Assembly: GCA_017463765.1 (NCBI GenBank)
Contig: JAFTON010000055.1
Span: 1-56,262 of the forward strand
Direction of reading: 5' to 3'
Length of the DNA: 56,262 bases
Source: Clostridia bacterium
GTDB lineage: Bacteria > Bacillota > Clostridia > Oscillospirales > CAG-272
The notes beneath the pieces are model-generated. The model had not been told where the DNA came from. It saw only the letters and a list, made by a program, of their open reading frames with translations, and ran no database searches. Position numbers and translations under genes: made by a program. Each line of letters begins with the position of its first letter. Position 1 is the first letter of the stretch. Positions 6,227 to 38,443 of this stretch are shown here, in pieces.

Positions 6227-6263
6227 TAATATATTTTTTAGATAGCTTGCTTTGATTTTTGAT

Positions 6264-6292: not shown

Positions 6293-6308
6293 TATATTTT
6301 GCTAAGCT

Positions 6309-9300
6309 TTAAGCAATGGGAGCGATAACGAGTGTAAGGGTAACGGTATCATCACCACTGTTTCCGCTGCTGTCCTTCTTGTAAGCAAAGTAGATGCTGT
6401 CGCCTTCTGCAAGAGTAGCAGTCTTGGAGCCGCTATCTTCACCCGATGCACCGCTTACAGTGGTGGTGGATGTACCGGATATAGTTTCCTCTACAGAGAA
6501 CTTATCCCAGCCACTCTCGGTGGATACATCGTAATTATAAGTAACGCTGTAGCTACCAAGCATAGTAATGGTCATAGCTGCGGTAGAAGAACCAATACCC
6601 TTGTTATTGCTTACCAAAGCACCGTTCTTATTAACGAAGTTATAAGTACCGTAGGTAACGTTTGCAGCCTTTACACCGTAAACAGTCATATCGCCTGTAA
6701 TGATTGCGGTCGTGATAGGCTGAGTGCATGCCTCGTCAGCAAACCAGATATAGAGGCCTGTTCCGTCGGAAGAAAGACCTGCGCCAAATGTTACTTCAGA
6801 ACCCGAGGTATATGTTGAAGAAACGTTTTCCATGCCTTCACCGTATACCATAGTTACGGTGTAAAGAGCGGACCACTTTGCATAGTAGGTCATGTCGCTG
6901 TTTTCTTCATACCAGTATTCTCTGCTGCCACTGAAATCTGCGGTGGTGTACCAGCCCTCGAACTTGTAGCCTTCGTAAGCGACGTCGGAAGGCAGACGAT
7001 ACTCTGCATTATGCTCTACCTCAACGCTGTCAATGATAAAGCCGTCAATACCTGTAACGAAGCTCACGGTATACTTAACGTGTACGATAGAATAGGTGTT
7101 TTCGGAAATGGTTACGTGATAGTATGCATCGCCGATGACAACCTCGAGATCGTATGCTACGTCATCTCCCATAACAGTATAGGTAAGAGCAGCATTCTCA
7201 AGTCCCTCTGCAGCATTGGTAATAGTACCTGCACCGTAGCCGTTAAGAACAAGTGCGTTGTTCTCGCCGTCGGTGTAGTAGCTGCCGCCCATGCCGTCGT
7301 TGATCTTCTGAACAAGGCCCTTGCTGCCGTCCTTAGCGAAGTAAGCGATAAGCTCGCCCTCGCTGTCGTAAACGTAAAGATTGGATGCCTGGTATGCGTT
7401 GAGGGCTGTTACGTCGCCATCATCGGATGCCCAGGTAACGTCAGAATAGATACGATCTTTAAACAGGAAGAAGTTAACAGCGCCTGCATCACCCTGAATA
7501 GTACCGAGCTTGATCATACCACTGTTCCAATAGCAACCGTTATAGCCGAAGCTTGTGCCGGAAACATAGATGTTTACGTCATCGTCAATAACCTCGCCAC
7601 CGGCGCTATAATTACAAATAAGCACGCCGGATGCTGCATCAAAGAGACCGAGAAAACGCTTGCCATCGGATGTATAAGCCTTGAACAAGCATGTTTCAGG
7701 ATCATATTCAGTGATCGTAGCGGTGTTATTGCCAAAAGTAGCATTACCGAGTGCATCAACAACAAACGTTGAGCTGCCCGAGCTGGTGGTCTTAGATCCA
7801 CCACTCTGAGTGCTACCGTAAATGTTAGCGCCCTTGTAAGAACCGAACATAGGATGAGCGTCAACCCACTTTGCGTAAATTGTAATGCTTTCGCTGATAG
7901 GACCGGAAACGTATGCTACTGTGCAATCAGCATCAGTATACCAACCGTCAAACGCCTTGCCGTTGGTGTAACCGGGCTCAACAAGAACGGGAGTATCACC
8001 TGCGCCGTAGTAATCTACAACAGTCTCAAGAGTGTTGCCGTAAACAACGCTTACGCTGAGCATAGCATCCCACTTAGCTACGAGAGTAACGCTACCGTCG
8101 GTAACGAATGCGTTAATATCTACGATAGTCTGAGCCTCGTCACCCTGAACGTACCAGCCTCTGAATACGAAGCCTTCTGCAGAAAGGGTAGGAAGAGATG
8201 TGGGAACGTTAGCAAATGCGCTCTTGGGATCAGCTGCGCCGTGATCGCTCACGAAGGTGATGGTTACGGGAACGGGAGCAGCTACGTAGGTCTTGTTTTC
8301 CTTATCAATATCTACAACATAGTACATATTTACAGTATTATCCTCATTGAAGGTATATACTCCAAAGGTATCGTCGTCGATCTTGGTGTAGGTACCGTTA
8401 AGACCTGCGATTGTGAGTGCGCCATAGCCCGAAACAACAACGTCACCGTTCTCGCCGGTATAGGTGCCTTCATAGCCGTCAAGCTGACACATGGTTGTGC
8501 CGTTGTAACCGAAGTAAGCAATAAGGTTGCCCTCTCTGTCCTTTACGTAAAGCATAGAGGACTGGTAGCAAGCATTAGCTGCTACAGCGTTGCCGTCAGC
8601 ATCCTCGAAGGATACGCCGAAGTAAACAACGTTGTTATTTACGAAGATGGTGTAGCTGGTTGCATCGTCGAAGTTATATACGATACAAGCAGTATTACCG
8701 TTATTCCAGTAAGAACCAACCATCATAGATGTAATGCTATTGGTTGAGAGGGGATTAAGGAAGAAGAATTCCTGCATATCTGCATCGCCTGTTACATAGT
8801 TAAGAAGGATAATACCTGTTTCCTTATCAATGTAACCCTTATAGGACTTACTTCCACAGTTGAGCACAAGAGTGCCTGCTACGGGATCGTAATCGGTAAT
8901 GGAGATATCACCTGTTGCGAAGGGATAGCTGGTCTTAGGAGACTTACCGTCGGGATCGATAGTGAAGCATGCAGCCGTACGAGTGTAGAACTTGTAAAGA
9001 TCGGTTGCATTCGAATCGTTCTTTCTCTCTATCTCGGTAACGGTGTAAGTAAGGTTGTAGATAGGAGCATCAGACCACTTAGCGTAAATGGTGATGCTTT
9101 CGGTCATAGCGGAGCCACTTGCCCACTCTGTACCCTCTGCGAAATCAGCGGTGGTGAACCAACCGTCGAACTTATGCTTTGCATAGGTAGGATTGTCGAT
9201 CGTTGCGATCTCGCCCTCACCGTAAATGAACTGGCCATTCTCGGTTACGTTGTCGTTATAAACAACGTTAAGAACGAACTCAGCCTTCCAGAGAGCTACG

Positions 9301-12300
9301 AGTGTAACGTCTGCTGTGGGAGTATAGCTGTCGCCAACTGCAGTCATGGTCTCATCGCCCTGTACGTACCAGCCACGGAATACGAAGCCTTCTGCAGAAA
9401 GGGTGGGAAGAGCAACTGCAATATTGATGTTAACAGAGCCGATCTGCTCAAATTCAACGTTCTTGCCGTTAGCATCGAGTGTAACGTTTGCCATAGGCTT
9501 GGTAAGCGTTGCAGTTCTTGCTGCGGTGTCAAGAGTCATTACGTAGTATTCGGTGTTTACACCGTCAACTGCGAAGTATACGTCGAAGCCGTTCTCGGTT
9601 GCAGTGTAGGTACCTGTCTTATCGCCATATATAATTGTGCCTGTACCGTCGAGAGCGATAGTTTCATCACCCATAGCGTAGCTGCCGTAGTAAGCATCAA
9701 GCGCCATTGTGTTGTTGTTATCGCTAAAGGAAGAACCGATAGAGGTTACGGCAACGATTATGTTACCGGTCTTGTTATCCTTAACGATAACAGTCTTGGA
9801 ATCCTTAACAGTAGAGGGAGTAAGAACCTCACCTATTGCAGAAGTGATAGTTACGTTGTTGTAGATATGGTTGTTGTAGAGGAAGATGGTAGTATCCTCG
9901 CCAAGCTTTGTATCTACAGTGATGAACTGTGCATAGTAGTTAAATTCGGTGCTACCGGGAGTCTTGGGAGCCTTTACACCGTAGTGTGCGTCTACCTTAC
10001 CGTTTGTAGCCTCTGTATAACGGCTGTAGAAGTAGTAGTCATTACCGATATCGTAATTACTATACATACCTGCGATAACGCCGGTCTCAGCATCGAAGTA
10101 GAAGGTATAGGTTGAAGTAGCAGTTGCGCTTGTCTTCCACTGAACAACCTGAGTTGCAGGATCGTAGGATACGATTATACCGGTCTTGAAGCCGGAAATA
10201 TTACCGTTTTCATCAATGGTAATAGGAGTCTTTGAGCTATTACCATAGCTTGCATTCCAGATCTCAACACCATAGTATGTGCCGTAGTAAGCGGGAAGAT
10301 CGATCCACTGAGCGATAATGGTTGCGCCTGTGTCCTCTGCACCGATGGTGGTTTCAAGGTCAAGTGCAAAGTCCTCGCCGTCAATCTCGCCGTTGCCGTT
10401 AGCATCAACGTACCAAGCTACAAACTTCTTGTAGTTGTCGAGGTCAAGGCCGTAGGTAGGAAGGAAGTCGCCGATAACGTCGCCCTCGCCAAGATAGAGA
10501 GTATCAGCGTCATCACCGATAGTTCCTACAAGAGTGATAACAACCTTTGCCTTCCAGCTTGCGTAAAGGGTTACGTCGGTGGTAGGAATGAAGTCAGCTT
10601 CTACGGGCTGAGTGCAATCTGCATCATAGTACCAGCCCTTGAAGGTCATGGTAGGATGAGTGTAGGTAGGAAGAGTCTGAGGTACGTTCTTGTTGTACTC
10701 GATAGGCTCCTGCTCAGCATATTCGCCTGTTACAAAGCTTACGTTAACCTTAGGCATTTCAAGGGTGTAGGAAGCGTCATCGCCAAGAGCTACAACGTAG
10801 AAGTGAGTAACCTTGCCGTCTGCATCCTTAAGATATACGTTAATGCCGTCATCTGCAACGGTGTAGCTACCGCTAACGCCGCCAAGAGTAAGTGTGCCGA
10901 AGCCCGAGATAACGAGATCGCCGTTGTCGCTATTGGAGTAGGTTCCTTCATAACCGTCAAGAGCGTTCTGCTTCTCGCCATCATAACCGTAGGAAGCGAT
11001 AAGCTCGCCTGCAGAATTCTTAACGTAAACGTATGCTGCATTATAGCAAGCATCTGCGCTTACTGCGTTACCTGCCATATCAGAGAAGCTTACGCCGATG
11101 TATGCTCTGTCTGCTGTGCAGAATACGCTGTATGCGTTATCGTTTACGGTATAGGTAAATGCCATTGCGTTGCCGTTCCAGGAGGAAGCAACTGCAGAGT
11201 TATAAGAGGGATCTGCCTCAAAGGGAGTATAAAGAACAACGTAATCGAAAGCAGAGTTTCTCGCACGAACGATTATGCCTGTAGCAAAATCAACGTATGC
11301 GGGATATGTAATGTAGCTTTCATAGTTGGGTACTTCATTACCGTCTTCATCGGTAGCAATGTCGTAGATGACAATATCAATTCTACCTGTTTCAGCATCA
11401 ACCATTCTGATCTGGGTAAAGCCACGGTAAGGATAGGATGTGCAGAATCCGAAGCCGTTAGCATCAAGAGTCAAGGTAGCATTGCTCCAGGTATCCTGAG
11501 CAGTAACAACCTTATTGCTTTCCTCAAGCTCGCCGTCGAATACAAGGTTGGTGTAGGTCTTTCCGTCATAAGGAGCAACGAGCTTTGCGATCGCCACATC
11601 TACTGTGCCGTAGATAGAGGAATAGGTCATCACGCCTGCCTCGTTGTAGGTTGCGGGAGTAGCTACGGTAGCTGTCCATACGGTAGCATCGGTAAGAACG
11701 GGGATTATTCCCTGCTCCTTTGCGCCACAAGCACACTCGCGCTCAGCTGTGCCGGCTGCGGTCTCGGTAGCCTGTGTAATAACTGTCCATGCACCGTAAG
11801 CGTGACCCTCGGTCTTAGCAAGAGTAACCTTTACTGTGCCGTAAAGCTCGGAGGTGTAAACCTTCTCGCCCTCTTCAAGATGAGAGGGAGCCTTGGTGAT
11901 CTCGGCAGTCCATACGGTAGCATCGGTAAGAACGGGAATTACGCCCTGTTCCTTATCGCCACAGATACATTCACGCTCAGCTGTGCCTGCTGCGGTCTCG
12001 GTAGCCTGTGTAATAACTGTCCATGCGCCGTAGGAGTGTCCCTCGGTCTTGGGAAGAGTAACCTTTACTGTTCCGTAAAGCTCGGAGGTGTAGGTCTTCT
12101 CACCCTCTGTGGTGTGAGTAGGCTCGGTGGTAACCTCTGCCGACCATACGGTAGTATCTGCAAGAGCAGGTACGCTTACGTTTTCGGTTGCACCGCACTC
12201 ACAAGTCTTTCTTGCCTGGCCCTCAGATGCCTCGGTAGGATTTACGGTCAAGGTGTAAGTCCATTCGTGAGGAATTATAGCCAGCTCGAATTCTACAGAT

Positions 12301-12593
12301 CCGTACGATGAGGTATAAACCTCTGCACCTGCAGAATTGTGTGTTGCGGGAGTTACCTGCTTTGTCCAGAACTCACCGTCGGTGAGAGGAGGCAGAGTAA
12401 CTTCCTTGGTCTCGTTGCATTCACATTTACCAATAGCAGCACCGGAAGCCTGTTCGGTTGGGGCTGTCTGTATACTCCAGTTGGAATATACGTGCTCATG
12501 CTCTTCTGCCGGGAACAATATGTCACAGCAGGTAAGCACCGCAACCATTGTAAATGTCAAAACAAGTATCGCCAAAATTTTCTTTGCGTTCAT
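6309..12593 (-). CDS. Giant (2094 aa) secreted/lipid-anchored modular surface protein with InlB-B/Flg_new repeats
   Basis: The preferred start is MNAKKILAILVLTFTMVAVLTCC (ATG 12593-12591, GGAGAAAAAACA upstream). The track ORF extends 32 codons further. It has several Flg_new-type motifs, for example FKGWYYDADCTQPV...VTLYASWKA, FRGWYVQGDE...TLVALWKA and FEGWYTTADF...TYYAKWSA. Four large super-modules are present. No LPXTG signal and no C-terminal TM. Confidence 0.85.
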   Translation of the reverse strand: MNAKKILAILVLTFTMVAVLTCCDILFPAEEHEHVYSNWSIQTAPTEQASGAAIGKCECNETKEVTLPPLTDGEFWTKQVTPATHNSAGAEVYTSSYGSVEFELAIIPHEWTYTLTVNPTEASEGQARKTCECGATENVSVPALADTTVWSAEVTTEPTHTTEGEKTYTSELYGTVKVTLPKTEGHSYGAWTVITQATETAAGTAERECICGDKEQGVIPVLTDATVWTAEITKAPSHLEEGEKVYTSELYGTVKVTLAKTEGHAYGAWTVITQATETAAGTAERECACGAKEQGIIPVLTDATVWTATVATPATYNEAGVMTYSSIYGTVDVAIAKLVAPYDGKTYTNLVFDGELEESNKVVTAQDTWSNATLTLDANGFGFCTSYPYRGFTQIRMVDAETGRIDIVIYDIATDEDGNEVPNYESYITYPAYVDFATGIIVRARNSAFDYVVLYTPFEADPSYNSAVASSWNGNAMAFTYTVNDNAYSVFCTADRAYIGVSFSDMAGNAVSADACYNAAYVYVKNSAGELIASYGYDGEKQNALDGYEGTYSNSDNGDLVISGFGTLTLGGVSGSYTVADDGINVYLKDADGKVTHFYVVALGDDASYTLEMPKVNVSFVTGEYAEQEPIEYNKNVPQTLPTYTHPTMTFKGWYYDADCTQPVEADFIPTTDVTLYASWKAKVVITLVGTIGDDADTLYLGEGDVIGDFLPTYGLDLDNYKKFVAWYVDANGNGEIDGEDFALDLETTIGAEDTGATIIAQWIDLPAYYGTYYGVEIWNASYGNSSKTPITIDENGNISGFKTGIIVSYDPATQVVQWKTSATATSTYTFYFDAETGVIAGMYSNYDIGNDYYFYSRYTEATNGKVDAHYGVKAPKTPGSTEFNYYAQFITVDTKLGEDTTIFLYNNHIYNNVTITSAIGEVLTPSTVKDSKTVIVKDNKTGNIIVAVTSIGSSFSDNNNTMALDAYYGSYAMGDETIALDGTGTIIYGDKTGTYTATENGFDVYFAVDGVNTEYYVMTLDTAARTATLTKPMANVTLDANGKNVEFEQIGSVNINIAVALPTLSAEGFVFRGWYVQGDETMTAVGDSYTPTADVTLVALWKAEFVLNVVYNDNVTENGQFIYGEGEIATIDNPTYAKHKFDGWFTTADFAEGTEWASGSAMTESITIYAKWSDAPIYNLTYTVTEIERKNDSNATDLYKFYTRTAACFTIDPDGKSPKTSYPFATGDISITDYDPVAGTLVLNCGSKSYKGYIDKETGIILLNYVTGDADMQEFFFLNPLSTNSITSMMVGSYWNNGNTACIVYNFDDATSYTIFVNNNVVYFGVSFEDADGNAVAANACYQSSMLYVKDREGNLIAYFGYNGTTMCQLDGYEGTYTGENGDVVVSGYGALTIAGLNGTYTKIDDDTFGVYTFNEDNTVNMYYVVDIDKENKTYVAAPVPVTITFVSDHGAADPKSAFANVPTSLPTLSAEGFVFRGWYVQGDEAQTIVDINAFVTDGSVTLVAKWDAMLSVSVVYGNTLETVVDYYGAGDTPVLVEPGYTNGKAFDGWYTDADCTVAYVSGPISESITIYAKWVDAHPMFGSYKGANIYGSTQSGGSKTTSSGSSTFVVDALGNATFGNNTATITEYDPETCLFKAYTSDGKRFLGLFDAASGVLICNYSAGGEVIDDDVNIYVSGTSFGYNGCYWNSGMIKLGTIQGDAGAVNFFLFKDRIYSDVTWASDDGDVTALNAYQASNLYVYDSEGELIAYFAKDGSKGLVQKINDGMGGSYYTDGENNALVLNGYGAGTITNAAEGLENAALTYTVMGDDVAYDLEVVIGDAYYHVTISENTYSIVHVKYTVSFVTGIDGFIIDSVEVEHNAEYRLPSDVAYEGYKFEGWYTTADFSGSREYWYEENSDMTYYAKWSALYTVTMVYGEGMENVSSTYTSGSEVTFGAGLSSDGTGLYIWFADEACTQPITTAIITGDMTVYGVKAANVTYGTYNFVNKNGALVSNNKGIGSSTAAMTITMLGSYSVTYNYDVSTESGWDKFSVEETISGTSTTTVSGASGEDSGSKTATLAEGDSIYFAYKKDSSGNSGDDTVTLTLVIAPIA
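11583..12503 (-). repeat. Four tandem ~77-aa coding repeats with a 234-nt period, each carrying a His-aromatic motif and a CxC(G/N) pair
   Basis: The anchor CCATACGGTAG recurs at 11676, 11910 and 12144, exactly 234 nt apart. Copies 3 and 4 share long identical runs, for example GCGGTCTCGGTAGCCTGTGTAATAACTGTCCATGC. At protein level: GHSYGAWTVITQATETAAGTAERECICG versus GHAYGAWTVITQATETAAGTAERECACG. Confidence 0.85.
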
Positions 12594-12710
12594 TGTTTTT
12601 TCTCCTTTACTATCCGAGAAGTGATGTACGTCAGGGTATTTGCTCGTCCGGCACTGATAAGCATTACGTCCCGCCGTATCATTCCTCATAAATTAGATTT
12701 TTATATACAA

Positions 12711-15700
12711 TCAATCTGCAATAAGCAGAGCACCTATTGAAATATAGCCCTGCGCATCGGATGAAAGATTGGTGGATTGAAGCTTAAGCTGATTGATGGA
12801 GATCACGTCCTCCACGTAGAAGGTGAAGAAAACGTCGCCGACAGAAACCGTCAGCATATCAGCCGAAAGCGAATAGGTAGCCACCCTGGTATCAGAGGTG
12901 GTGAAGATGGGTGAATAGCTATCAACCGTACATCCGTCCGTCTCGCTGTCGTGGGAGGGAGAGATGGAGGTGATATTCACCCTGCCGTCCTCAAGGAAGG
13001 CAAAGGTTGTTTCGGCGTCGTAAATGACGTCGTCACATACGAATCTATAGCTTATGCTATAGGACTTTCCTACAAAGCTGCTTGCGCTGAAGGGCAAGGC
13101 TTCTTCTGTGTAGGTCATTGTATCGGTGTTCAGGATAAAGCCGTGAAGCTCCTTGAAATTAACCACGATCCACTTGCCGTTCTGACGGTAGCTTCCCACG
13201 TTATCTCCAAGCTTTGCCTTGCCGAATCCGTCAAGGATAAGATCACCCTTACCCTCTGCGGTGAAAGTACCACGCCAGGCATCAGACTCTGTAAGTCCCT
13301 TATTTGAGCTGCCCCAGCTGTCAATTCTGACGTATACGGTCTTAGCCGGGCTATCTACCTTAAGAATTGCGCCGACAACGAAGGGATTGTCTGAATTAAG
13401 ACAGGTTACGGTCGCCTCATCACCGATAGATGAAAGAGAAGCAGCCAGGCGATACACCGTTTTTCCACCCACCGTGAAGGCACGAAGCACGACGCCCTCT
13501 CCTCCTGCCACGTAGGAGGTTCCTGTGGTGTAAAGCTCGGTGAAGTTTGCTGCACCGGAGGCAACGACCTTAAGCACGCCGTCGTGAAGCATATTGCCAC
13601 GAAGGGTGATCATACCTCCGTCCTCGCCGTAAACTCTGCCGCTGAACTCATTGTTCTCTGCCCCAAGGGTTGCAAGACCCTCATAGGTAACGTCACCGAT
13701 ACTGAGCTTCATTCTGCCGTAAAGATCAAGCGAGAAGAAGCTGTTCTGGAAGAGCACGCCCTGTCCGAAGATCTGGGCAACGGGAGCGCTGTCTGCCAGG
13801 GGAGCAAGGATCTGAACCGTGTAATAAGATGTTACCGTCTCACCACCCACCGAGATGCTTACTCCGAAGCGATAGAAGCCCGGAGCAGTCCATTTTACCG
13901 TGTTGGTGGTAAGGCAAGCCTTCTTTTGCGCATCGTTCATCACACCGTCCTTGGTCGTGATGGTAATACGCTGATAGAAATCATCCTTGGCGTTTACGCT
14001 TGCGCCGATCTGAAGTGTCGACATATCAACGATAGCACCGTCAACTATAGTGCTGTTACGCCAGGTTGCCCCAACCTCACAGACGTCTGCAAAGGATTTA
14101 GCCACAAGCAGATTTCCGAGAGGATGAGTATAAAGCACTGCACCCTTACCGTGAGTAAAGGTTGGAATCGTGTCGAGATAGGTGATATGAAGCTCCTGTC
14201 CAACAAGCTCATAGGAAAGCTCGGTGACGGTATATGAGGACCTGTTGAAATTGATAACGCCGTGTCCGTAGCCGTTAAGGAACAGATACATATTTCCGAG
14301 CTCGTAGAAGCCGAACAGATTATCTCTTTCCACAAGGGTGAAGCTGTGCGACGCCTCGTCGATCATAAAATGATAGGAATAGGGATCGTATTCATCATCT
14401 GCATAATCGTAGAGAAGAAGCGATGAGCTTGCCTCGTTTACACCGCCATATTTCATACGGTAGAAGGATTGCATATCGGTTGTGAACTGCTTTACGCCGT
14501 CCACGTATAAGGTATAGTGTCCGTAATTATTTACCTGAATGCTTGCGGTCTTGCCGTCTACGGTACCGCTGAAGGTCTGGTTAGCCCATTTCTTATTGAT
14601 CTCATCCTCACGGTTGATCTTTCCCTGCTTAAGAGAGGAAAGAGTGAACTCATAGGACTGTCCGTCAAGAGTTACCGTAGCAACGTCACCCGCTACAGCG
14701 GTATCGAAATTGTTGCTGAGTCGGGCTTCGCCCCAGGTATTCACGTATACGGTGTCGGATGAAAGCTTTGAAACGAGATGCACCTTCTGTCCGTACCAGA
14801 AGGAAGTATTATCCTCATTTGAGGTGATGTAGAACAGGTCGATGCTGTAGTGAGCACCGTTTGCTGAATCAAGCACGTAATCGCTGGTCTGATTTACGAT
14901 GAAGCGTTTTTCAACGGTCCAATCCCTCTCGTGGAAATAAACCGCAGGACGCTTCTCGTTGCTATAGCTTAAGCAAATAGAGTTCTCGGGATCAACCGTG
15001 ATAATACCGTTATCGTAATGAATGGTATGAAGGAATGAGAAATACTGAACGTTGAAGGTATGCTCGTCTATAGCGGATACGATAGGACATACCCTGCCCT
15101 GCATTCTGACCGTACCGTCATCATAGATGATAAGGTCACTGAGCTGAGTTGCCTTCTCGCCCTCCTCGATATATCCGTCGCCGTCCTCGCTGTCGCTTGA
15201 GCCTATAGTGGTAAGCTTGGTGTGATAGGTACCGAGCATACCGTCATCAAGAACGATAACCTTAGCCTCGGTATTAATACCACGGTATACCATCGAAACG
15301 GTATAGCTACCGGGGGTGAATACGTCAACCTTGCCCGAGATCATATCATAGCTTACGGGAACGGATTTACCCGCCTCGGTGATATGGAACAGATCCTTTA
15401 CAAGCAAGGGACTTCCCGCAAAGACGGTTGCGCCGTCTGCGGTGATCGAAATATCAGCCTCTACACGAAGCAGGTAAGAAACCTCAACAGGCTCGCTGTC
15501 AGGGCCGTTTACGTAAACAGCAACACGAACCTCCTGATCTGCCACGCTATTGAAATCAATGGGATCGGACAGCACCCTTGCGTAGCAGGAGATGATATCC
15601 ACGTGGTCGGGATTTGTCGTAAGAGTCTGATTATATCCGTTGATCTTAACCTGAATATTGTTAAACACGTTATAGGACGTAGTTCCTATGCCGAGAAGCA

Positions 15701-17048: not shown

Positions 17049-17124
17049 AAAAGTACCCCTTTGTTGGTGTAGATTGGTCACAAGGGTTGTTAATAAAGCT
17101 TAATAACTGTCAGTCAAAAGCAGA

Positions 17125-19536: not shown

Positions 19537-19568
19537 TTTTTTATTCCTTTCTTATTTATTTTAATATG

Positions 19569-29647: not shown

Positions 29648-29665
29648 AATTGGAATACTCCTTGA

Positions 29666-29911
29666 TTAACTAAGCCATAGCGCTATCAGCAGCATCACAA
29701 GAACAAAGCTACCCAGTACGATAAGAAGCACGGGGAGATAACATTCAAATGCGGCTGCTATGGCTGCGATTTTTTCTTTTCCTGAAAGCCCGATATGCTG
29801 TGTCGGGCGTTTATTGTTTTCGCCTGTAAGACCCGACATATCATAGACGGTATGACCGTCGTCCACGTAGGGCTTTTTCTTCGGCTTCGGTTTTTTCTCG
29901 GGCTTATTCAT
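29666..29911 (-). CDS. Small (81 aa) tail-anchored membrane protein of unknown function
   Basis: The preferred start is MNKPEKKPKPKKKP (ATG 29911-29909), which overlaps the oppF stop by 8 nt. It has a Lys/Pro-rich N-terminus and a single C-terminal TM, LPVLLIVLGSFVLVMLLIALWL. The track ORF extends to 29974, inside oppF. Confidence 0.6.
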   Translation of the reverse strand: MNKPEKKPKPKKKPYVDDGHTVYDMSGLTGENNKRPTQHIGLSGKEKIAAIAAAFECYLPVLLIVLGSFVLVMLLIALWLS

Positions 29912-31034: not shown

Positions 31035-32197
31035 TTTGCATCCGCCTTTTCTTCATACAAATAGCAACAAACCCAATGGGTGTCGCTTACCTGAACGCCT
31101 CTGGGATATTCTCCCTCGCATTTCTCCACGCATTTGCTGCAGCGGCTCTTGAAATAGCAGGAGTTGGGAAGATTGATGGGGTTGGGAACCTGTCCCGGAA
31201 TAGAATAGAGGGGCTCGTTTACGTCGGAGTTTATCATAGGCTTGCTCTTCTGAAGTCCTATGGTATAGGGGTGCAGGGGGTTGTGGAAGATATCGTGGGC
31301 AGTTCCCTTTTCGATAACACGTCCCGCATACATTACTACAACCTCGTCAGCCATCTCTGCAATTACGCCGAGATCGTGGGTTATCAGCATAATCGAGCAG
31401 CCCTGCTTTTTCTGCAGGTCCTTCAGAAGCTCAAGGATCTGAGCCTGAATGGTAACGTCAAGCGCCGTTGTGGGCTCGTCTGCAATAATAAGCTTTGGGT
31501 CTCCTACAAGCGCCATGGCGATCATTACTCTCTGACGCATACCGCCCGACAGCTCGTGAGGATAGCTTGCATAGGTATGCTCGGGCATAGAGATGCCGAC
31601 CTTCTTGAGCATTTCAATAGAGTGCGCCTTCGCATCCTCGGCCGAAATGCCGGGATTATGAATGAAGGATGCCTCGTCAAGCTGATAGCCGATCGTAAAT
31701 ACGGGATTAAGGCTTGTCATAGGCTCCTGGAAGATCATAGTAATATCCTTACCACGAATGCGGTACATCTCGGCGGTGGGGGTTTTCGCAATATCATAGC
31801 CGATATCACGTCCGTCCTCGGTCTGACCGAGATCGCCTGCATTAAAACGGATCTGTCCCTCTATGACCTGTCCCTGAGGCGCCTGAACGAGCTGCATGAT
31901 CGAGAGCGAGGTAACACTTTTACCGCAGCCCGACTCTCCTACGACGCCAACGATCTTACACTTGGGAATATCGAAGGACACGCCGTTTACAGACATAACG
32001 GTGCCGTTGTCTGTGAAGAAGCAGGTTTTAAGCGAATCTATTTCAATGAGATTACGATTATCTCTCATAGGAACGGTATATTCAGCCAAGGTACGGGGCT
32101 TTCTCTTCTCTGCCTCGTAATGCTTCATCTGCTTTATGTTATATCGAATGATAGCACGGCTGTCCTTTACAGATAAATAATTACCTTTTTGTTTCAT
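31031..32197 (-). CDS. oppD: Oligopeptide/dipeptide ABC transporter ATP-binding protein
   Basis: Walker A GESGCGKS, signature LSGGMRQR, Walker B IIADEPTTALD. The N-terminal ~45 aa are an extension relative to typical OppD, so the start is uncertain. Confidence 0.88.
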   Translation of the reverse strand: MKQKGNYLSVKDSRAIIRYNIKQMKHYEAEKRKPRTLAEYTVPMRDNRNLIEIDSLKTCFFTDNGTVMSVNGVSFDIPKCKIVGVVGESGCGKSVTSLSIMQLVQAPQGQVIEGQIRFNAGDLGQTEDGRDIGYDIAKTPTAEMYRIRGKDITMIFQEPMTSLNPVFTIGYQLDEASFIHNPGISAEDAKAHSIEMLKKVGISMPEHTYASYPHELSGGMRQRVMIAMALVGDPKLIIADEPTTALDVTIQAQILELLKDLQKKQGCSIMLITHDLGVIAEMADEVVVMYAGRVIEKGTAHDIFHNPLHPYTIGLQKSKPMINSDVNEPLYSIPGQVPNPINLPNSCYFKSRCSKCVEKCEGEYPRGVQVSDTHWVCCYLYEEKADAK

Positions 32198-32247
32198 TGA
32201 TACGAAAATTCCTTTCTATGCCAATGGCATATTCGGAGTTAATAATT

Positions 32248-33306
32248 TTACTTTCTTGCCTTGGGGTCCATAGCGTCACGCAGACCGTCACCTACGAAGT
32301 TGAATCCGAGAACGGCGATCACGATCATAAATCCTGCGGGCAACCACATATTCACGTGGTAGGAAAGAACCTGAGGATCGTTTGCAGTTGCGATCATAGT
32401 ACCCCACGCAGCCTTGGGCAGCTGAACGCCGAGGCCGAGATAGCTGAGGGTGGACTCATAAAGAATTACGCTGCCGAGGCCGAGCGTCATAGACACGATA
32501 AGCTGAGGCATAACGTTGGGGATGAGGTGGAAAAATATCTTACGCCAAATTGAAAGACCCATAACCTCGGTGGCAGTGATATACTCCTGCTCCCTGAGCG
32601 AGAGGATCTGTCCTCTTACAAGACGTGCCACACCACTCCAGCTGAAGATGGTGATGATAACCATTAAAATATAAATTCTCTGATCGGGCTCGATATTCCA
32701 GGAATCGATCATAGCAGAGGCGATAAGCAGAATGGGAAGCATTGGGATACAGTTGAAGATATCCACTATTCTCATAATAAGCTGATCCACCCAGCCGCCG
32801 AAGTATCCCGAAATTCCACCGAGGACCACGCCGATGAGCGTTTCGAGAATAACAACGATAAAGCCGATGGTAAGCGAAATTCTTCCACCATACATCAGAC
32901 GAACGAAAACGTCCATCCCCTTATCGTCTGTTCCGAGAAGATGCTCCTTGTCGGGAGAGGCATAGTTGTTGATACCGCTGACGTGCTCAAGCTGCTCAAC
33001 CACCTCGATCTTATTACCGTTTTCATCGGTATATTCATAGGTTTGATAAATGAAATTGGAAACCTCTGTTCTGTCAACCGTTTCCTCACCCCACTTCTGA
33101 TAGATAACGGGGCCGAGGAAGGAGAAGAGGAAGAGGAATGCGATCATCAGAATACCCACGATAGAAAGCTTGGATCTGAAGAATCGACGCATAACGAGCC
33201 TTATAGGGCTCATCTCCTGATAGGTTTCCTCCTGCTCACCTGTAACGGTAACGGGAGCTTCGTCATTCTCTGTTGAGGCGATGAACTGTTTATCCTTTTC
33301 TGACAT
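32248..33306 (-). CDS. oppC: Oligopeptide ABC transporter permease
   Basis: 352 aa. BPD-transporter core with the EAA-like region REQEYITATEVMGLS. The first external loop is enlarged. GTGAGG ribosome-binding site. Confidence 0.88.
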   Translation of the reverse strand: MSEKDKQFIASTENDEAPVTVTGEQEETYQEMSPIRLVMRRFFRSKLSIVGILMIAFLFLFSFLGPVIYQKWGEETVDRTEVSNFIYQTYEYTDENGNKIEVVEQLEHVSGINNYASPDKEHLLGTDDKGMDVFVRLMYGGRISLTIGFIVVILETLIGVVLGGISGYFGGWVDQLIMRIVDIFNCIPMLPILLIASAMIDSWNIEPDQRIYILMVIITIFSWSGVARLVRGQILSLREQEYITATEVMGLSIWRKIFFHLIPNVMPQLIVSMTLGLGSVILYESTLSYLGLGVQLPKAAWGTMIATANDPQVLSYHVNMWLPAGFMIVIAVLGFNFVGDGLRDAMDPKARK

Positions 33307-33315
33307 CTCTTAACC

Positions 33316-34323
33316 TCACTTTCCAAGCTTGACACGGGGGTCAACGATAGAATACATAATATCGGAGCAAAGCGTACCGATAACCGTCAGCACCGCAAGG
33401 AACATATTGTATCCCATAATAAAGGGAATGTCGCCCTCCTTAAGCGCCTGATAAGCAAGTCTACCTATACCGTCAATACCGAATACCTGCTCGGTGATCA
33501 TCATACCGCCGAATAGCGAGGGGAGAATACCCGCAAGAAGAGTTGCGAGAGGAATCATGGTATTACGGAATGCGTGAACGTAAATAACCTTGTTTTCAGA
33601 CAGACCCTTTGCTCTTGCAGTACGGATATAGTCAGCACCGAGAACCTCGAGGGTGTTGGTACGTGTGTAACGCATAAGTCCGCCGATCGAAAGAATTACG
33701 CTTACGAAAATGGGAAGGATAAGATGCTGAATGATATCGAGAAATTTCTCAAATCCACCTGCAAAGCTGTCGGCATAGTCCTTCGTAGCGTCGATAAGTC
33801 CGTTTGCAGGAAGCCAGCCGAGATCTACGGCAAAGACCTTGATAACGATGGCGGCAAAGAAATATGTAGGAAGCGACAGACCTATCATCGTAAACACGGT
33901 GACGGCGTAGTCCCTTACAGAATACTGATGAGTGGCACTTGAAATGCCGAGGGGGATGGCAATCAGGAACTGAAGCACCGTTGCCACCGCTGCGATGGCG
34001 AAGGAAATCCACATATTTTCACCGATGACCTGAGCCACAGGCTTATCATATTTAAAGGAATTTCCAAGGTCGCCCTGCAGCAGCTTGGTTATCCAGTTGA
34101 AATAACCGCTGGCAATTCCCTTGAATGAGGAATCACCTATTCCGTACAGCTCCTTGAAATGGTCCACGTCCTCTTGCTTTATGGCACCCGTCTGGAGCTG
34201 TGTTGCGAACTTCAGATCCACATAGTCGTTGGGCATCAGACGCACCATCGTATAGATGATGATCGATACGCCGAAAAGTATGAGGAGAGAGATCAGCAAT
34301 CGTTTTACAACATATTTAAACAT
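33316..34323 (-). CDS. oppB: Oligopeptide ABC transporter permease
   Basis: 335 aa. Typical OppB/DppB N-terminus MFKYVVKRLLISLLILFGVSIIIY and EAA motif ADYIRTARAKGLSE. Confidence 0.9.
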   Translation of the reverse strand: MFKYVVKRLLISLLILFGVSIIIYTMVRLMPNDYVDLKFATQLQTGAIKQEDVDHFKELYGIGDSSFKGIASGYFNWITKLLQGDLGNSFKYDKPVAQVIGENMWISFAIAAVATVLQFLIAIPLGISSATHQYSVRDYAVTVFTMIGLSLPTYFFAAIVIKVFAVDLGWLPANGLIDATKDYADSFAGGFEKFLDIIQHLILPIFVSVILSIGGLMRYTRTNTLEVLGADYIRTARAKGLSENKVIYVHAFRNTMIPLATLLAGILPSLFGGMMITEQVFGIDGIGRLAYQALKEGDIPFIMGYNMFLAVLTVIGTLCSDIMYSIVDPRVKLGK

Positions 34324-34373
34324 TTTTTCTTCCGTTTTTCTTATTTAATAAGTGAAACACGACTCTGCGAGCA

Positions 34374-37052
34374 TCAGCGCTCGACGTTGAGAGAAACCTT
34401 ATGCAGATCGTTGGTAAGACCGCAGTAGGGAGAAAGCTCGCTCTCGGGAGTAAGAGAGTCAACGTCGATCTTGTCGGTGTTGAATGCGAACAGGTCGTCT
34501 CTCTGGTATGTGGGAAGCTCGATAGCAAGCTGCATTACGATATCAAGAGCCTGAGAATAAAGGTTTGCACGGATTGCCTTACCCTCGGGAGTGTCGTCGA
34601 GTGTCTTACGAGCCTCGTCGATGATCTCGGAGAGCTCCTCAATAAGAGCCTTCTCTGCATCGTACTTACCGCCTACGTTAAGCTTGATCTGCTTATATCC
34701 CCAGTTAAGAGTTGAGGATGCGTTGGAGTCGATGTGATATACCTGATACATATCGGGGTCAATGGTAGAGCCCCAAGCAGCCGCCCATACGGTAAGGTCA
34801 CCTGTGGAAAGCTTCTTAAGAGCGTTAGCGTCGGTGGTAACGTTTACCTGGAAGCCAACCTCGTTAAGGAACTCACCTGCGTGCCACATAGCCTGCCAAG
34901 CGGGATGGTCGGTCTCCTCGCCTGCGATGGTGAAGGTATACTTGAGAGTATGGTTGCCCTTTACGTATACACCGTTAGCATCAAAAGTATAGCCTGCGCC
35001 CTCTACGAGAGAGGTGATGAACGCCTGCTGCTCCTCCTTTGTAAAGGTATCGCCGGCCTTCTTGCCGCAAGCTAAAACGTAGTCACGGTAAGCAGGGTTT
35101 ACAACCGAGAGATCCTCCGGAACCTTGCCACCGATGTAAGGATAATATGCGGTTGCCTTGTTGGGATAAGCCCAGCTGGACTTGGACATAGAACGGTAGA
35201 TAGCCTGAGCTGTGGTTTCGTAGTAGTCTACACACTCCTGGGTATTGATGGTGTGCATAATAGCCTGACGAACCGCCATATCAGGAACCTTACCTGCATT
35301 GATGCCGATATATCCGTAGCCTGCGGTCTGGATGGACTGGTTACCGATGCCCTGATCCTTCTTGCCGTCAAGCTCGTCTATGGTCTCGGGATTTGCGTTA
35401 GGCTCTGCAAAGTCGATCTCCTTGTTGTAAAGAGCATTAAGCATCTGAGTAGAGGATACTACCTGATAACGAACCTTCTTGATAGTTGCGGGTCCCATAA
35501 TGTAATAGGGATTACGCTCAAAGTAGATAACGCCCTTATCGTAGAAATCACCTGCGCCGATACCGTCAAGACCGCCACTGGACTTACTTGCTGCGTAAGG
35601 ACCTGCGCCAACGGGAACGCCAAGCTTCGAGGGGTTCTTAACTACGTTTTCCATAAAGCTCTGAGAACCACGCTCAACACCGAAGTTTGAAACAAAGTCA
35701 AATGCCTCGATATGCTCCTTATCTGAATAGTAGTACATAGGAGCTACGCTGAATGCAAAGTTCCAGATAGCCTTGGGGTCAACGTCATGAATGGTGATGG
35801 AGAGAACCTCGTGGCTCTCTGCCTGACCGTCTGGGGAATATGTAGGTACGGGATATTCCACGCCGTTTACGGTAACGGGCGCTTCCATATTAGCAAACTT
35901 GATGCCCGAGATGTTGGGGAACTTAATAGTAGCGTTCTGAGTAGCGTTCTGGAAATAGTTTTCCATAGCTACGTTGGTAAGATAGCTGTTAAGAGTAGAG
36001 GCGGTTGCCCAATACTGAATAACGGTAGCGATATCGTGAGGAATGTTTGCGTCATAAACAAACTCGATGGCACGCTCCTTGCTCCAGGTAAGCACGTTCT
36101 CCTTAAAGTCGGCTTTGTAATCAAGCTTACCGTCGTTTCTGTTCCATACGATCCAGCCCTTGTTGTAGAGGAATGCCTCAACGTCGGTGGTAAGAAGGTT
36201 CTTGTATACTGTTCCCTCCTTATCCGAGAAGCTGATCTGATCGTAGGAGTTAAGCGAGTTGGACCAGTCGTTGTTAAGCTCCTCTCTGAAGAGCTCAAGC
36301 GCCTTTTCATAGTCCTCTACAAGATGAGCGTAGGCAGGACCGTTTTCGGAATACTCCTCAAGCTTTGCCTTGAAGCCGTCGCTGTCAAGATTACCGTTCT
36401 CATCCTCGGAGAAGATATCGGCTGACGCATCAACAAGGGCGTCAATACGTGCGGTAGCATCGGTCTGGAACTGAAGCATAAAGGCATCCTGCTCCTTCTC
36501 GTTCTTGGTCTGTGTGCGGTAAGCCTTAAGACCTACGATATCGGTGGAATAGATGGTGCTGGAGCCTGTATATGCGGGATCGAGATATACGTAGAGATTG
36601 AAAAGAACGTCCTTAATGGTAAGATAAGAGCCGTTCGAGAAGCGTACGTTGTTTTTAAGAACGAAATAATAGGTTGTGGTCTGATCCACGTCCTCGGTGC
36701 CCTTGGTGATAATCTGAAGATCCTTGGTAACGGCTGCCTCGTCGTCACCGTAGGTATACTTACCGTCCTTATCGTTGGACAGCATACCGATCTGGGTCAT
36801 ACCTACCACGCTGCTGTCGGTTGCAGAGGTGGAGAAGAAGGGGTTGAATACCTTATCGACCTCGAGGGTAGCGAACACCAACGGATCGGTTTCATTGTTA
36901 TATGCGGTCTTATCCTCATCCTTGCCGAAAACGATAATGAGGGTTACTACTATAGCGATAACCGCTACTGCTGCGGCGGCAACAGGCCACCATTTTTTCC
37001 AGAATGCCTTGCTGGCAATCTTCGACCATAAGTTAGTGAAAAAATCTTTCAT
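34374..37052 (-). CDS. oppA: Family-5 (OppA/DppA-type) substrate-binding protein, oversized (892 aa) and membrane-tethered by an N-terminal signal anchor
   Basis: The SBP_bac_5-like core includes YYFVLKNNVRFSNGSYLTIKDVLFN, YGYIGINAGK and DLTVWAAAWGSTIDPDMYQ. The N-terminal TM WWPVAAAAVAVIAIVVTLIIVFG lacks a lipobox Cys. A ~230-aa insert follows the first lobe. AAAGGAG ribosome-binding site. Confidence 0.85.
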   Translation of the reverse strand: MKDFFTNLWSKIASKAFWKKWWPVAAAAVAVIAIVVTLIIVFGKDEDKTAYNNETDPLVFATLEVDKVFNPFFSTSATDSSVVGMTQIGMLSNDKDGKYTYGDDEAAVTKDLQIITKGTEDVDQTTTYYFVLKNNVRFSNGSYLTIKDVLFNLYVYLDPAYTGSSTIYSTDIVGLKAYRTQTKNEKEQDAFMLQFQTDATARIDALVDASADIFSEDENGNLDSDGFKAKLEEYSENGPAYAHLVEDYEKALELFREELNNDWSNSLNSYDQISFSDKEGTVYKNLLTTDVEAFLYNKGWIVWNRNDGKLDYKADFKENVLTWSKERAIEFVYDANIPHDIATVIQYWATASTLNSYLTNVAMENYFQNATQNATIKFPNISGIKFANMEAPVTVNGVEYPVPTYSPDGQAESHEVLSITIHDVDPKAIWNFAFSVAPMYYYSDKEHIEAFDFVSNFGVERGSQSFMENVVKNPSKLGVPVGAGPYAASKSSGGLDGIGAGDFYDKGVIYFERNPYYIMGPATIKKVRYQVVSSTQMLNALYNKEIDFAEPNANPETIDELDGKKDQGIGNQSIQTAGYGYIGINAGKVPDMAVRQAIMHTINTQECVDYYETTAQAIYRSMSKSSWAYPNKATAYYPYIGGKVPEDLSVVNPAYRDYVLACGKKAGDTFTKEEQQAFITSLVEGAGYTFDANGVYVKGNHTLKYTFTIAGEETDHPAWQAMWHAGEFLNEVGFQVNVTTDANALKKLSTGDLTVWAAAWGSTIDPDMYQVYHIDSNASSTLNWGYKQIKLNVGGKYDAEKALIEELSEIIDEARKTLDDTPEGKAIRANLYSQALDIVMQLAIELPTYQRDDLFAFNTDKIDVDSLTPESELSPYCGLTNDLHKVSLNVER

Positions 37053-37080
37053 ATCTAAAATCTCCTTTGATTATTCTATC

Positions 37081-38265
37081 TTAAGGCTCGTCTGTTTTGT
37101 CGAGCATATTTACCGTAACGTCGGTTATCTCCGAGCCGTCGCCCTCGGGAATGAAATAAACCGCCTTATCCTCGATAACGATCAGCGAGGACTCCTTGTC
37201 AAAGCCGTTTGGCAGCTGAGAGCAGGTGACGGTAGCGTTTGAAACCGTCAGACCTGTAAGCTTACTGTTCTCAATCTTCATAACGAGAGGAGCTACCATA
37301 ATAAGCTTGGTACCCGGGTATCCGGCATTGATATCAACCGTGAAGTCCGAGAAATTAAGATCGCTGACCGTAGCGTTCTTAAGTGAACCGAACAGGCTGA
37401 TGCAGAGGATGCCTCCCTCGGTGCTTAGGTCGGGGTCTGTGATAAGACCGTTCTTACTGTTATCGTAAGAGAGTGTGAAGTTCCTGATGGTAAAGCCGTT
37501 GCCCTTTATAATTCCCTTGTAATCACCGAATCCCGAGAACGCCTCGCCCTCGAAATCTATATCACAGGTGAAATAAAGGTTTTTATTCTTGTTGGCAAGC
37601 AGCTTACGTGGCGAATCCACAAGCACGAAGTCACCCTCTATGTAGTGAAGGAAAACACGCACGGCTGTATCGGTTTCTCCTCCCGGATGAGTGAAGCCTG
37701 CGTTCCAGGGCTCATCGTTCTCGTCATAGATGCCGTCGAGCGCCGTGTAGCCGAAGCGCTTGTTTCCGAAGTAGGAAGCATAGAAGTCATTGAAGGTGTC
37801 ACCCTCGTTTACCTCATAGCTGCCGAGAGAGTGAACCGACTGATCCTTCTCGTCACGGTAGCATACCTCGTAGGTATAGATGATATTTTTCTTCCATTTC
37901 GCATAAAGCGTTACGCCATCGGCGTCTACCTTATCCTTTTCAAAATCCCACTTATTCTCGTAGGTTACGCTGTCACCGTCAACAACCTTTTTGGTGTACC
38001 AGCCCTCAAGGCTGTAGCCAGTACGGATGATCTCCTGCTTTGAGAAGGATGAAAGCTCTTTGATAAGATGTCCGCCCTCACCTTTAAAATCGTAATACTG
38101 GATAACGGGCTGCTCACAGTTCTGATAAACTCCGCCCTCCAGCTGATAAATAACCTTTACCCTGTCCTCAAAGGTTCTTGTGCTGTCGCTGCATCCTATA
38201 AGCGATACGGCAAGACACACAAGGCATAGACAAAGTATCAGATAAGCTATTGCATTTCTACGCAC
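37081..38265 (-). CDS. Lipoprotein (394 aa) with InlB-B/Flg_new repeats and a beta-helix-like C-terminal half; first gene of the operon
   Basis: GTG start 8 nt after GAGGAGG. Lipobox SLIGC. Flg_new-like segment YSLEGWYTKK...GVTLYAKWKK. The C-terminal repeats (NGFTIRNFTL, NATVSDLNFSDFTV, LTGLTVSNATV) suggest a parallel beta-helix. Confidence 0.8.
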   Translation of the reverse strand: MRRNAIAYLILCLCLVCLAVSLIGCSDSTRTFEDRVKVIYQLEGGVYQNCEQPVIQYYDFKGEGGHLIKELSSFSKQEIIRTGYSLEGWYTKKVVDGDSVTYENKWDFEKDKVDADGVTLYAKWKKNIIYTYEVCYRDEKDQSVHSLGSYEVNEGDTFNDFYASYFGNKRFGYTALDGIYDENDEPWNAGFTHPGGETDTAVRVFLHYIEGDFVLVDSPRKLLANKNKNLYFTCDIDFEGEAFSGFGDYKGIIKGNGFTIRNFTLSYDNSKNGLITDPDLSTEGGILCISLFGSLKNATVSDLNFSDFTVDINAGYPGTKLIMVAPLVMKIENSKLTGLTVSNATVTCSQLPNGFDKESSLIVIEDKAVYFIPEGDGSEITDVTVNMLDKTDEP

Positions 38266-38303
38266 GAAAAATAACCTCCTCAGTTTTTGAGAAACAAATT
38301 TAG

Positions 38304-38365
38304 ATAAAAATAGTTGTCATTCCGCATGGGATGAGCTCCCTTCAGATGTAACGGTGATGACAACT
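38304..38365 (-). promoter_or_regulatory. Leader hairpin plus U-tract (candidate transcription attenuator) between promoter and first gene
   Basis: In RNA sense: AGUUGUCAU(CA)CCG ... CGG(A)AUGACAACU, followed by AUUUUUAU. An alternative pairing is possible between the upstream CAUCCGCAU (38387-38395) and AUGCGGAAUG, which lies in the 3' arm of the hairpin. Confidence 0.4.
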
Positions 38366-38414
38366 CAAGCTTTTTATAAATTATTAATGCGGATGCGCTT
38401 AATAATAATATAAT

Positions 38415-38443
38415 ATTTTAGCACCATGAAAAAATATTGTCAA
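38415..38443 (-). promoter_or_regulatory. Strong sigma-A promoter of the 32-kb operon
   Basis: On the minus strand: TTGACA (38443-38438), a 17-nt spacer ending in TGc (extended -10), then TAAAAT (38420-38415). About 140-nt leader. Confidence 0.7.

Follow-up and report, generated by a model that had tools for sequence, protein, structure and literature searches.

The contig JAFTON010000055.1 of a Clostridia bacterium, analysed here over its stretch of 56,262 nt (henceforth the window), carries on the minus strand a cluster of twelve genes in which an Opp-type importer is followed by a giant S8 protease and a series of large lipoproteins. The genes are referred to as g1 to g12 in the order of their transcription, from 38265 down to 6309. 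A cluster with this gene order was found in about 75 species of uncultured gut bacteria; no paper describing it was found in the literature, and it appears to be undescribed. The reading that we prefer, and hold with about even confidence on the strength of the predicted proteins and their arrangement, is that the locus encodes a membrane-anchored apparatus with which uncultured gut Firmicutes would digest extracellular protein and import the peptides. It is supported by the intact catalytic triad of the protease, a strict gene order, the existence of a minimal variant, the anchors on the gene products, and a single strong promoter and terminator.

Gene order, transcription signals and carriers

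The carrier scan covered one genome per GTDB species and gave 109 relatives of g9, for which 79 loci were fetched. Gene order was assessed by tblastn of the twelve window proteins against 85 related loci, some of which are identified below by L-numbers. In 85/85 of them g5-g6-g7-g8-g9-g10-g11-g12 are colinear and on one strand over the full reach of the contig, without exception, and gene calls on independent contigs agree with the tblastn order. A preliminary description of this DNA had proposed to examine whether homologues of the 783- and 803-aa lipoproteins (amino acids, aa; here g9 and g10) keep company with proteases combining an S8 domain and leucine-rich repeats (LRR) and with Opp genes, and in every locus that is long enough they do. 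Protein identities in distant loci were ~80% for g5, ~65–78% (typically 75%) for g6, ~55% for g8, 38–60% for g9, ~40% for g10, 26–49% (typically ~37%) for g11 and 27–50% for g12. The 5' end was examined in two distant loci, one of low GC (titled 'Anaeroplasmataceae') and one of high GC ('Clostridia'), and consists in both of a g1-like gene, the binding protein, oppB, oppC, oppD, oppF, the small gene and the protease, preceded by unrelated upstream flanks. Two local peculiarities were seen, an extra 178-aa gene without family assignment between the protease and the g9 orthologue of L004–L006 (9452–9988), and a g12 orthologue split into genes of 281 and 1448 aa in L002 (18711–19556).

A distant short variant, L089 (1–13541), contains oppD, oppF, a 79-aa g7-like gene, a 2633-aa protease and a 968-aa g9-like gene, followed 130 nt further on by purE, and has no g10, g11 or g12. 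Its g9 relative is 27% identical to that of the window (E 2e-27), its protease has the S8, PA, fn3_5 and LRR_5 domains, and its 79-aa protein keeps the g7 motif. From this gene content it follows that the invariant core comprises the Opp importer (of which the ATPase genes are seen there), g7, the protease and one lipoprotein of the g9 family. On the same comparison of genes, g10 to g12 are best regarded as additions of the main clade.

Within the window, the list of open reading frames (ORFs) and their translations gave twelve genes, all on the minus strand, spanning 31,957 nt and encoding 10,519 aa in total, which are the figures of the preliminary description. Also as described there, no gap exceeds 117 nt (the widest, between g11 and g12) and three pairs of genes overlap at start and stop codons, g5/g6 by 4 nt, g6/g7 by 8 nt and g8/g9 by 4 nt; g7 and g8 are separated by 18 nt. 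The single strong promoter reported upstream could be located at 38443–38415 (minus strand), as a TTGACA-17-TAAAAT site with a TG extension (11/12 matches), which leaves a 5' untranslated region of ~140 nt before g1. The fold of this leader was not significant (z −1.7), and the region upstream of g1 contains no Rfam family, riboswitch, T-box or CodY box. At the other end, two hairpins are found 3' of the g12 stop codon (6292–6190, minus strand), and the second of them (~6227–6190), being followed by U7, is an intrinsic terminator. This region has a minimum free energy of −44.5 kcal/mol (z −6.6), and 0/200 shuffles folded equally well. The first hairpin (6264–6292) is a GC-rich stem of 11 bp directly past the g12 stop. 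It reads as a terminator on the plus strand, where its tail is T-rich, but lacks a U-tract on the minus strand, and may be a bidirectional or stabilising element before the true terminator at ~6227–6190. Terminator-like hairpins inside the cluster are weak and poorly tailed (22 in the region 5600–25000 against 15.0 ± 4.1 expected from shuffles, and 14 in the region 25000–40600 against 13.8 ± 3.8). As predicted from gene order and transcription signals, the locus is most likely one conserved operon.

The records in which the cluster was found bear titles such as Christensenellaceae, 'Christensenella sp. UBA...', Candidatus Fimimonas, Gallimonas, Limihabitans and 'Clostridia bacterium', and others such as Mollicutes, Acholeplasmatales, Anaeroplasmataceae, 'Coprobacillus sp. 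CAG:698', 'Staphylococcus sp. CAG:324' and 'Bacilli bacterium'. Those titles that state a source name the gut or faeces of a human, sheep, goat or deer. The GC content of the loci is bimodal, 28–31% with Bacilli- or Mollicutes-type titles and 39–60% for the others, and in a neighbour-joining tree of g9 all 25 low-GC loci fall within one clade of 27 tips. With classes assigned by record title and GC rather than by marker phylogeny, this suggests that the carriers come from two classes of Firmicutes. Candidatus Fimimonas (taxid 2840648) stands under Myxococcaceae in the NCBI taxonomy though its metagenome-assembled genome (MAG) has the Firmicutes-type cluster; that placement is probably wrong, and illustrates that claims at the level of classes cannot safely be built on record titles. 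Cluster GC tracks that of the host genome (28–60%), and the cluster has therefore adopted the composition of each host. GC and the g9 tree together fit a long residence in these genomes, with at most a few ancient transfers.

For some of the orders suggested by the record titles, reduced envelopes or metabolism have been reported. RF39, RFN20 and ML615J-28 are predicted to be in part thin-walled or wall-deficient, and the latter two have no sortases (PMC10868615); RF39 genomes are without several amino-acid pathways and fatty-acid synthesis (PMC6784871). Thin walls and the loss of sortases would explain the use of transmembrane and lipid anchors instead of LPXTG. They also affect a phrase of the preliminary description, which had presented the system as a 'Gram-positive analogue' of a polysaccharide-utilisation locus; 'Gram-positive' needs qualification where the suggested Bacilli orders are in part thin-walled or wall-deficient (PMC10868615).

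The protease and the importer

The largest gene of the cluster, g8 (29647–21917, 2576 aa), encodes an S8 protease of the cell-envelope-proteinase type. The protein begins with a lipobox signal and a pro-region, continues with an S8 domain into which a PA domain is inserted and then with fn3_5, Big_2 and LRR_5, and ends with a spacer, helical and rich in Pro, and a transmembrane anchor at the C-terminus. Pfam places Peptidase_S8 at residues 224–694 (2.8e-41), PA at 497–572, inside the S8 range, and fn3_5 at 727–845, while seven matches to the BspA-type LRR_5 extend over ~1000 aa, a region that also matches the HupY/LrrG adhesin model of NCBIfam. Residues 128–886 match the NCBIfam model of the SGO_0316/0317 (challisin-type) peptidase (6.5e-82), and residues 179–886 give a continuous alignment to C5a peptidase, SpyCEP and CEP in the PDB (E about 1e-65; C5a peptidase 1.5e-65). 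The catalytic D/H/S motifs are present in g8 and kept in 74/74 orthologues, and g8 is therefore an enzyme and not merely an adhesin. These matches identify it, at the level of sequence, as a C5a-peptidase/lactocepin-type (cell-envelope-proteinase) S8 enzyme with a predicted intact triad. LPXTG is absent from g8, whose C-terminus is made of a Pro-rich linker, a transmembrane helix and a cytoplasmic tail, and a transmembrane anchor with a short, mostly basic tail was seen in most of the orthologues examined. By its predicted features, g8 belongs with the cell-envelope proteinases in its catalytic, PA and Fn3 parts and not in its anchoring. A pairing of the acidic g8 tail with the basic N-terminus of g7 was considered and ruled out; the acidic tail is confined to the close relatives of the window.

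The importer genes precede the protease. The first of them, g2 (37052–34374, 892 aa), encodes an oversized family-5 solute-binding protein (Pfam SBP_bac_5, 3e-29) anchored by an uncleaved N-terminal transmembrane helix. Proteins of the g2 type measure 865–900 aa and are 64–98% identical among the 120 best matches, that is, the oversized form is itself conserved. A profile of the family aligned to PDB cluster-C binding proteins in three pieces, with an insertion of ~300 aa between ~170 and 499. The permeases g3 (34323–33316, 335 aa, OppB-type) and g4 (33306–32248, 352 aa, OppC-type) both have BPD_transp_1 (2.4e-36 in g3), accompanied in g4 by OppC_N, and their nearest NCBIfam models are Opp4B and Opp4C of Staphylococcus (1e-77 and 7e-98, each below the cut-off of its model). 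The ATPases g5 (32197–31031, 388 aa, OppD-type) and g6 (31034–29904, 376 aa, OppF-type) each have ABC_tran and oligo_HPY (the latter at 8.9e-18 and 1.4e-18), and come nearest to the OppD/OppF and Dpp ATPase models of NCBIfam, among which g6 just reaches a generic dipeptide-ATPase subfamily model only. Since nearly all scores to NCBIfam equivalogs are below cut-off, the transported ligand is not readable from the sequence. With two permeases, two ATPases and a family-5 binding protein, which are the features of TC 3.A.1.5, g3 to g6 are predicted to form a complete ABC importer of the PepT/Opp type.

It is well established that lactic acid bacteria utilise casein by means of a cell-envelope proteinase together with Opp. 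Their system (PrtP/lactocepin, PrtM and Opp) resembles the present one in having a surface-anchored S8 protease with PA insert and Fn3-like region and an Opp-type importer, and in cleaving outside and importing the peptides. The differences are several. Here protease and importer are in one operon, g8 is anchored by a transmembrane helix instead of LPXTG or a wall-binding domain and carries ~1000 aa of BspA-type LRR, the cluster encodes no maturase of the PrtM/PrsA kind, the binding protein is ~300 aa larger, and six extra conserved genes (g1, g7 and g9–g12) are without characterised relatives. Judged by its genes, the cluster would work like the PrtP and Opp pathway but is a separate system. 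Closer to g8 in sequence are streptococcal C5a peptidase (ScpA/ScpB), SpyCEP and SGO_0316/0317, the best matches of residues 128–886, which share its catalytic-PA-Fn3 architecture; these, however, are sortase-anchored, stand-alone enzymes of virulence and immune evasion, without an LRR array or a linked transporter.

Two further systems are comparable in their organisation. In the dentilisin of Treponema denticola (PrcB-PrcA-PrtP), the S8 protease is made as a lipoprotein and the accessory lipoproteins of its operon form a surface complex with it. The likeness, an S8 protease lipoprotein in an operon with accessory lipoproteins, is one of description, and dentilisin differs as a small complex of a diderm organism without a linked Opp operon. 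The dentilisin complex appears as a topic in PMC7586716. The second comparison is with the polysaccharide-utilisation loci of Bacteroidota (SusC/D), to which the preliminary description had likened its scheme of protease, capture and uptake. Part of that scheme is supported, by strong linkage, an intact S8 triad and a PepT/Opp-type importer, but the analogy holds in concept only: surface capture lipoproteins, a surface enzyme and a dedicated importer are gathered in one locus in both cases, yet no parts are homologous, the transporter is of the ABC and not the TonB-dependent kind, and the enzyme is a protease instead of a glycosidase. No SusC-like TonB-dependent transporter or SusD-like lipoprotein was found in the cluster or its flanks.

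Accessory proteins and surroundings of the cluster

Every non-transporter product of the cluster has a membrane or lipid anchor signal. Lipoboxes were seen in the translations of g1, g8, g9, g10, g11 and g12, and the binding protein and the protease have their transmembrane anchors at the N- and C-terminus, respectively, as had been described before. By a simple pattern, a lipobox was recognised in 59/73 orthologues of g8, 64/77 of g9, 68/70 of g10, 64/72 of g11 and 22/27 of g12. The smallest product, g7 (29911–29666, 81 aa), is a tail-anchored membrane protein. Its N-terminus is basic, it contains the motif Y-V/I-DDGHT-x-Y-x-M, and its C-terminal transmembrane helix ends in LWL; there is no family for it in Pfam, NCBIfam or PHROGs. 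Homologues of g7 were assigned in 69 loci, and those listed keep the basic N-terminus, the motif, a KE-R-AAI-AA segment and the terminal transmembrane helix ending in LWL.

The lipoprotein g9 (21920–19569, 783 aa) has no match in Pfam, NCBIfam or PHROGs. A word-indexed search gave at least 191 relatives, all unnamed or called 'hypothetical protein' and all from MAGs, and an exhaustive hidden Markov model (HMM) search of 1.84 billion representatives gave 305 proteins at E <= 1e-30. Among the 150 best HMM matches, ~70 span the family-specific core and the others align only to the N-terminus with its immunoglobulin-like (Ig-like) domains; none is named. Core-spanning matches being few and nameless, the g9 family is therefore narrow and without a characterised member. 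An AlphaFold2 model built from a family alignment of 28 sequences reached a mean pLDDT of 85. Searched with Foldseek against the PDB, its only fold-specific matches were LprG, LppX, LolA (from four species), LolB and SAOUHSC_02783 (E 1.4e-5 to ~2e-3, probability 0.97–1.0, with a target TM of only ~0.3–0.53 and rmsd ~8 Å), and the remaining ones were generic Ig or cadherin arrays. At the sequence level, no match of g9 to the LolA/LprG families was found. The protein thus models as two Ig-like domains, a LolA/LprG-like half-barrel region and a C-terminal alpha/beta domain. Of the best structural matches, the mycobacterial LprG/LppX and the proteobacterial LolA/LolB, LprG has in common with g9 that it is a lipoprotein sharing an operon with a membrane transporter, whereas identity to this group is only 7–14%, and g9, four times larger, has in addition its Ig-like domains and a further domain at the C-terminus.

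The paralogy of the 783- and 803-aa proteins, already recognised in the preliminary description, is borne out by 22–26% identity between g9 and g10 (E 4e-10). g10 (19536–17125, 803 aa) is likewise a lipoprotein, has a weak Big_2 match, and has orthologues in 80 loci. An 804-aa ORF (17173–19587, plus strand) lies antisense across all of g10. We do not consider it a real gene, and it is an artefact of codon bias because g10 is without TTA, CTA and TCA codons, of which ~8 would be expected from the neighbouring genes. Orthologues of g10 have 0–12 of these codons at varying positions, and that of L008, which is 99% identical, already breaks the antisense frame.

The two last lipoproteins are repetitive. 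g11 (17048–12711, 1445 aa) has several Big_3-like repeats at its N-terminus, followed by ~850 aa without a family. g12 (12593–6309, 2094 aa) is composed of four CxC repeats of ~77 aa, four super-repeats of ~410 aa and a C-terminal domain, each super-repeat being made of a beta-rich module of ~270 aa without assignment and two Flg_new; Pfam recorded six Flg_new matches. The sharing of modules between these two proteins, noted earlier, was traced to g11 1208–1342 and g12 514–658 (~31% identity); what recurs in g11 is the second half of the g12 module. The CxC repeats (residues 64–371; 11577–12500, minus strand) show a borderline match to Pfam CILP_C (2.4e-6, 27.5 bits against a cut-off of 27), and the 71% identity of the two most alike copies suggests a recent internal duplication. 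Orthologues of g12 measure 1448–1879 aa in the three lineages with gene calls listed (L001–L006). Of the lipoproteins for which a search for structural relatives had been proposed, g9 was modelled well and pointed to a LolA/LprG-like domain that had not been anticipated. The g12 module, modelled from its five copies in the window, reached a pLDDT of only 66, and nothing in the PDB matched it below E 1e-3.

Upstream of the binding protein, the lipoprotein g1 (38265–37081, 394 aa, GTG start, LIGC lipobox) has one domain resembling Flg_new/InlB-B repeats (E 8e-6, just under the Pfam cut-off), so that Flg_new does occur in both the first and the last gene, as had been claimed. Its C-terminal half is without assignment. 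A lenient Pfam scan of all unassigned segments of the cluster gave nothing credible, only a faint GLUG motif in g1 and the borderline CILP_C match in g12. Counterparts of 379–383 aa, known by position and size, immediately precede the binding protein in L086 and L087; that of L087 has a weak Flg_new match and that of L086 no Pfam match on record. A phage or defence origin of the cluster was considered and rejected: PHROGs gave only weak Ig-type matches, and against viral folds the g9 model found only generic matches of the Ig, Fn3 and Big_2 types (TM ~0.1). Homology to phage receptors or to cell-wall synthesis, named at the outset as evidence that would speak for an unrelated process, was likewise not found in PHROGs or in the viral fold search.

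As for the surroundings, an AT-rich stretch (38270–40420, GC 0.345 against 0.46 for the window) separates the cluster from the next genes. It contains a 202-aa ORF (38892–39500, minus strand) without Pfam or PHROGs family and with a terminator-like hairpin of its own (38880–38858), as well as a tRNA-Glu(CTC) (40362–40288) behind a perfect TTGACA-17-TATAAT site (40411–40383), the only RNA family found across the whole window. Downstream of the cluster there is a MalK-like ABC ATPase (4109–5608, minus strand; ABC_tran, OB_MalK, TOBE_2), unusually long at 499 aa, whose ABC_tran match in two stretches suggests an insertion, and after it a 441-aa protein of no assigned family and a kinase of the PfkB type. 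A second protein with BspA-type LRR_5, this one stand-alone (52606–53694, plus strand, 362 aa, E 1.3e-58), is encoded 14 kb from the cluster.

Proposed role and alternative explanations

If the locus is indeed an apparatus for digesting protein and importing peptides, its parts might cooperate as follows. The LRR, Ig-like and Flg_new arrays would bind a polymeric target, which could be dietary or host protein or the surface of another cell, and the g8 protease would cut the bound target beside the membrane. The tethered binding protein g2 would catch the oligopeptides and OppBCDF import them, feeding cells auxotrophic for amino acids, a way of life that the gaps in the amino-acid pathways of RF39 genomes (PMC6784871) would suit. 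We propose g9 as a partner subunit of the protease, because it is coupled to it translationally and is kept even in the minimal variant; the ligand of its LolA/LprG-like pocket may be hydrophobic, or may be an acyl or peptide moiety. The other large lipoproteins, g10 to g12, might be extensions for capture or scaffolding. PrtP needs PrtM, and dentilisin has its accessory lipoproteins, which are precedents, by analogy only, for g9 as a partner.

Several observations weigh against such a role. g2 is too divergent for its ligand to be told (phmmer gave no PDB match, and the NCBIfam Opp4A score is far below cut-off), the nearest solved relatives of g8 include enzymes of immune evasion (C5a peptidase, SpyCEP) besides nutritional ones, and no PrtM/PrsA-like maturase or rotamase domain was found by Pfam or NCBIfam in any of the twelve products. 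Roughly 5000 aa of g9–g12 have no family match in Pfam, NCBIfam or a lenient Pfam scan, and the fold modelled for g9 suggests binding of lipid rather than protein.

Part of this evidence would suit a different function. The giant LRR, Ig and Flg_new proteins could form a coat for adhesion or interaction, attaching the cell to host mucus, epithelium or other microbes, in which the protease trims host or partner proteins or processes the coat, and Opp is co-transcribed but incidental. BspA-type LRR, Big_2, Big_3 and Flg_new are typical modules of adhesins, the LRR region of g8 matches the HupY/LrrG adhesin model, C5a peptidase and SpyCEP are among its nearest solved relatives, and all carriers are gut-associated and uncultured. 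Such a coat is possible but seems to us unlikely, given that oppD, oppF and g7 are the most conserved genes (~65–85% identity) and are never apart from the protease, even in the minimal variant, and that translational overlaps tie oppF to g7, with the protease only 18 nt further on. That the genes are functionally unrelated neighbours in a chance row has a negligible probability, and the synteny effectively refutes it: 85 loci have the genes in the same order and orientation, with protein identities as low as ~25–40% and in genomes of 28–60% GC.

Other explanations keep the importer and change what is imported. Mycobacterial LprG works with a transporter of the same operon, and g9 and g10 could similarly extract fatty acids, lipids or lipopeptides for cells without fatty-acid synthesis, with the protease opening lipoprotein or membrane substrates. 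The structural matches of g9 to LprG, LppX, LolA and LolB (E 1.4e-5 to 1e-3, probability 0.97–1.0) argue for this, as does the lack of fatty-acid biosynthesis in RF39 genomes (PMC6784871). We nonetheless find it improbable, the target TM being modest (0.3–0.5) and the transporter a member of the peptide/nickel/opine family instead of a lipid importer of known type; nor are all proteins with a LolA-like fold binders of lipid. Family-5 binding proteins include binders of oligosaccharides and of murein peptides, and a further possibility is that the system utilises glycans, glycoproteins or muropeptides, that g2 binds oligosaccharides or muropeptides, and that the unassigned modules are novel carbohydrate-binding or carbohydrate-active domains. 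The best score of g6 is to a murein tripeptide/oligopeptide OppF model, sugar genes flank the cluster in the window (the MalK-like ATPase, PfkB and an alpha-amylase), and a need for scavenged muropeptides is predicted for some of the carrier orders (PMC10868615). This we consider very improbable: no glycoside hydrolase, carbohydrate-binding, lyase or esterase domain was found in the twelve products even at E up to 1, the sole enzyme is a protease, conserved as an active one by its motifs, and the flanks differ between genomes.

A bolder version would combine these elements. The twelve products might make up one lipid-anchored surface machine, a lineage-defining feeding organ that grips a cell or a host glycoprotein, whose protease opens the target while g9 and g10 extract lipids or lipopeptides and g2 with OppBCDF takes the peptides. 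Such a machine would be contact-dependent and without a described counterpart, anciently inherited or exchanged between Clostridia-type and Bacilli-type lineages, its GC since fully adapted, in carriers that are partly wall-reduced. In this full form we judge it quite unlikely.

Digestion of extracellular protein and import of its peptides remains our preferred function for the locus, which would then bring the cell-envelope proteinase and the Opp pathway together in one genetic unit that has dedicated accessory subunits of its own. The locus also defines several protein families that are without annotation (g7, g9/g10, and the modules of g11 and g12). Its carriers are abundant uncultured gut lineages of humans, ruminants, chickens, rabbits and mice. 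The low-GC titles point to RF39, among others, and for genomes of this kind an operon of 32 kb, never rearranged, represents a very large investment; the size of that investment makes the cluster a strong candidate for how its carriers get nutrients or hold a partner. Once known, its substrate could guide the design of cultivation media, by indicating what type of protein, peptide or lipid the medium should contain.

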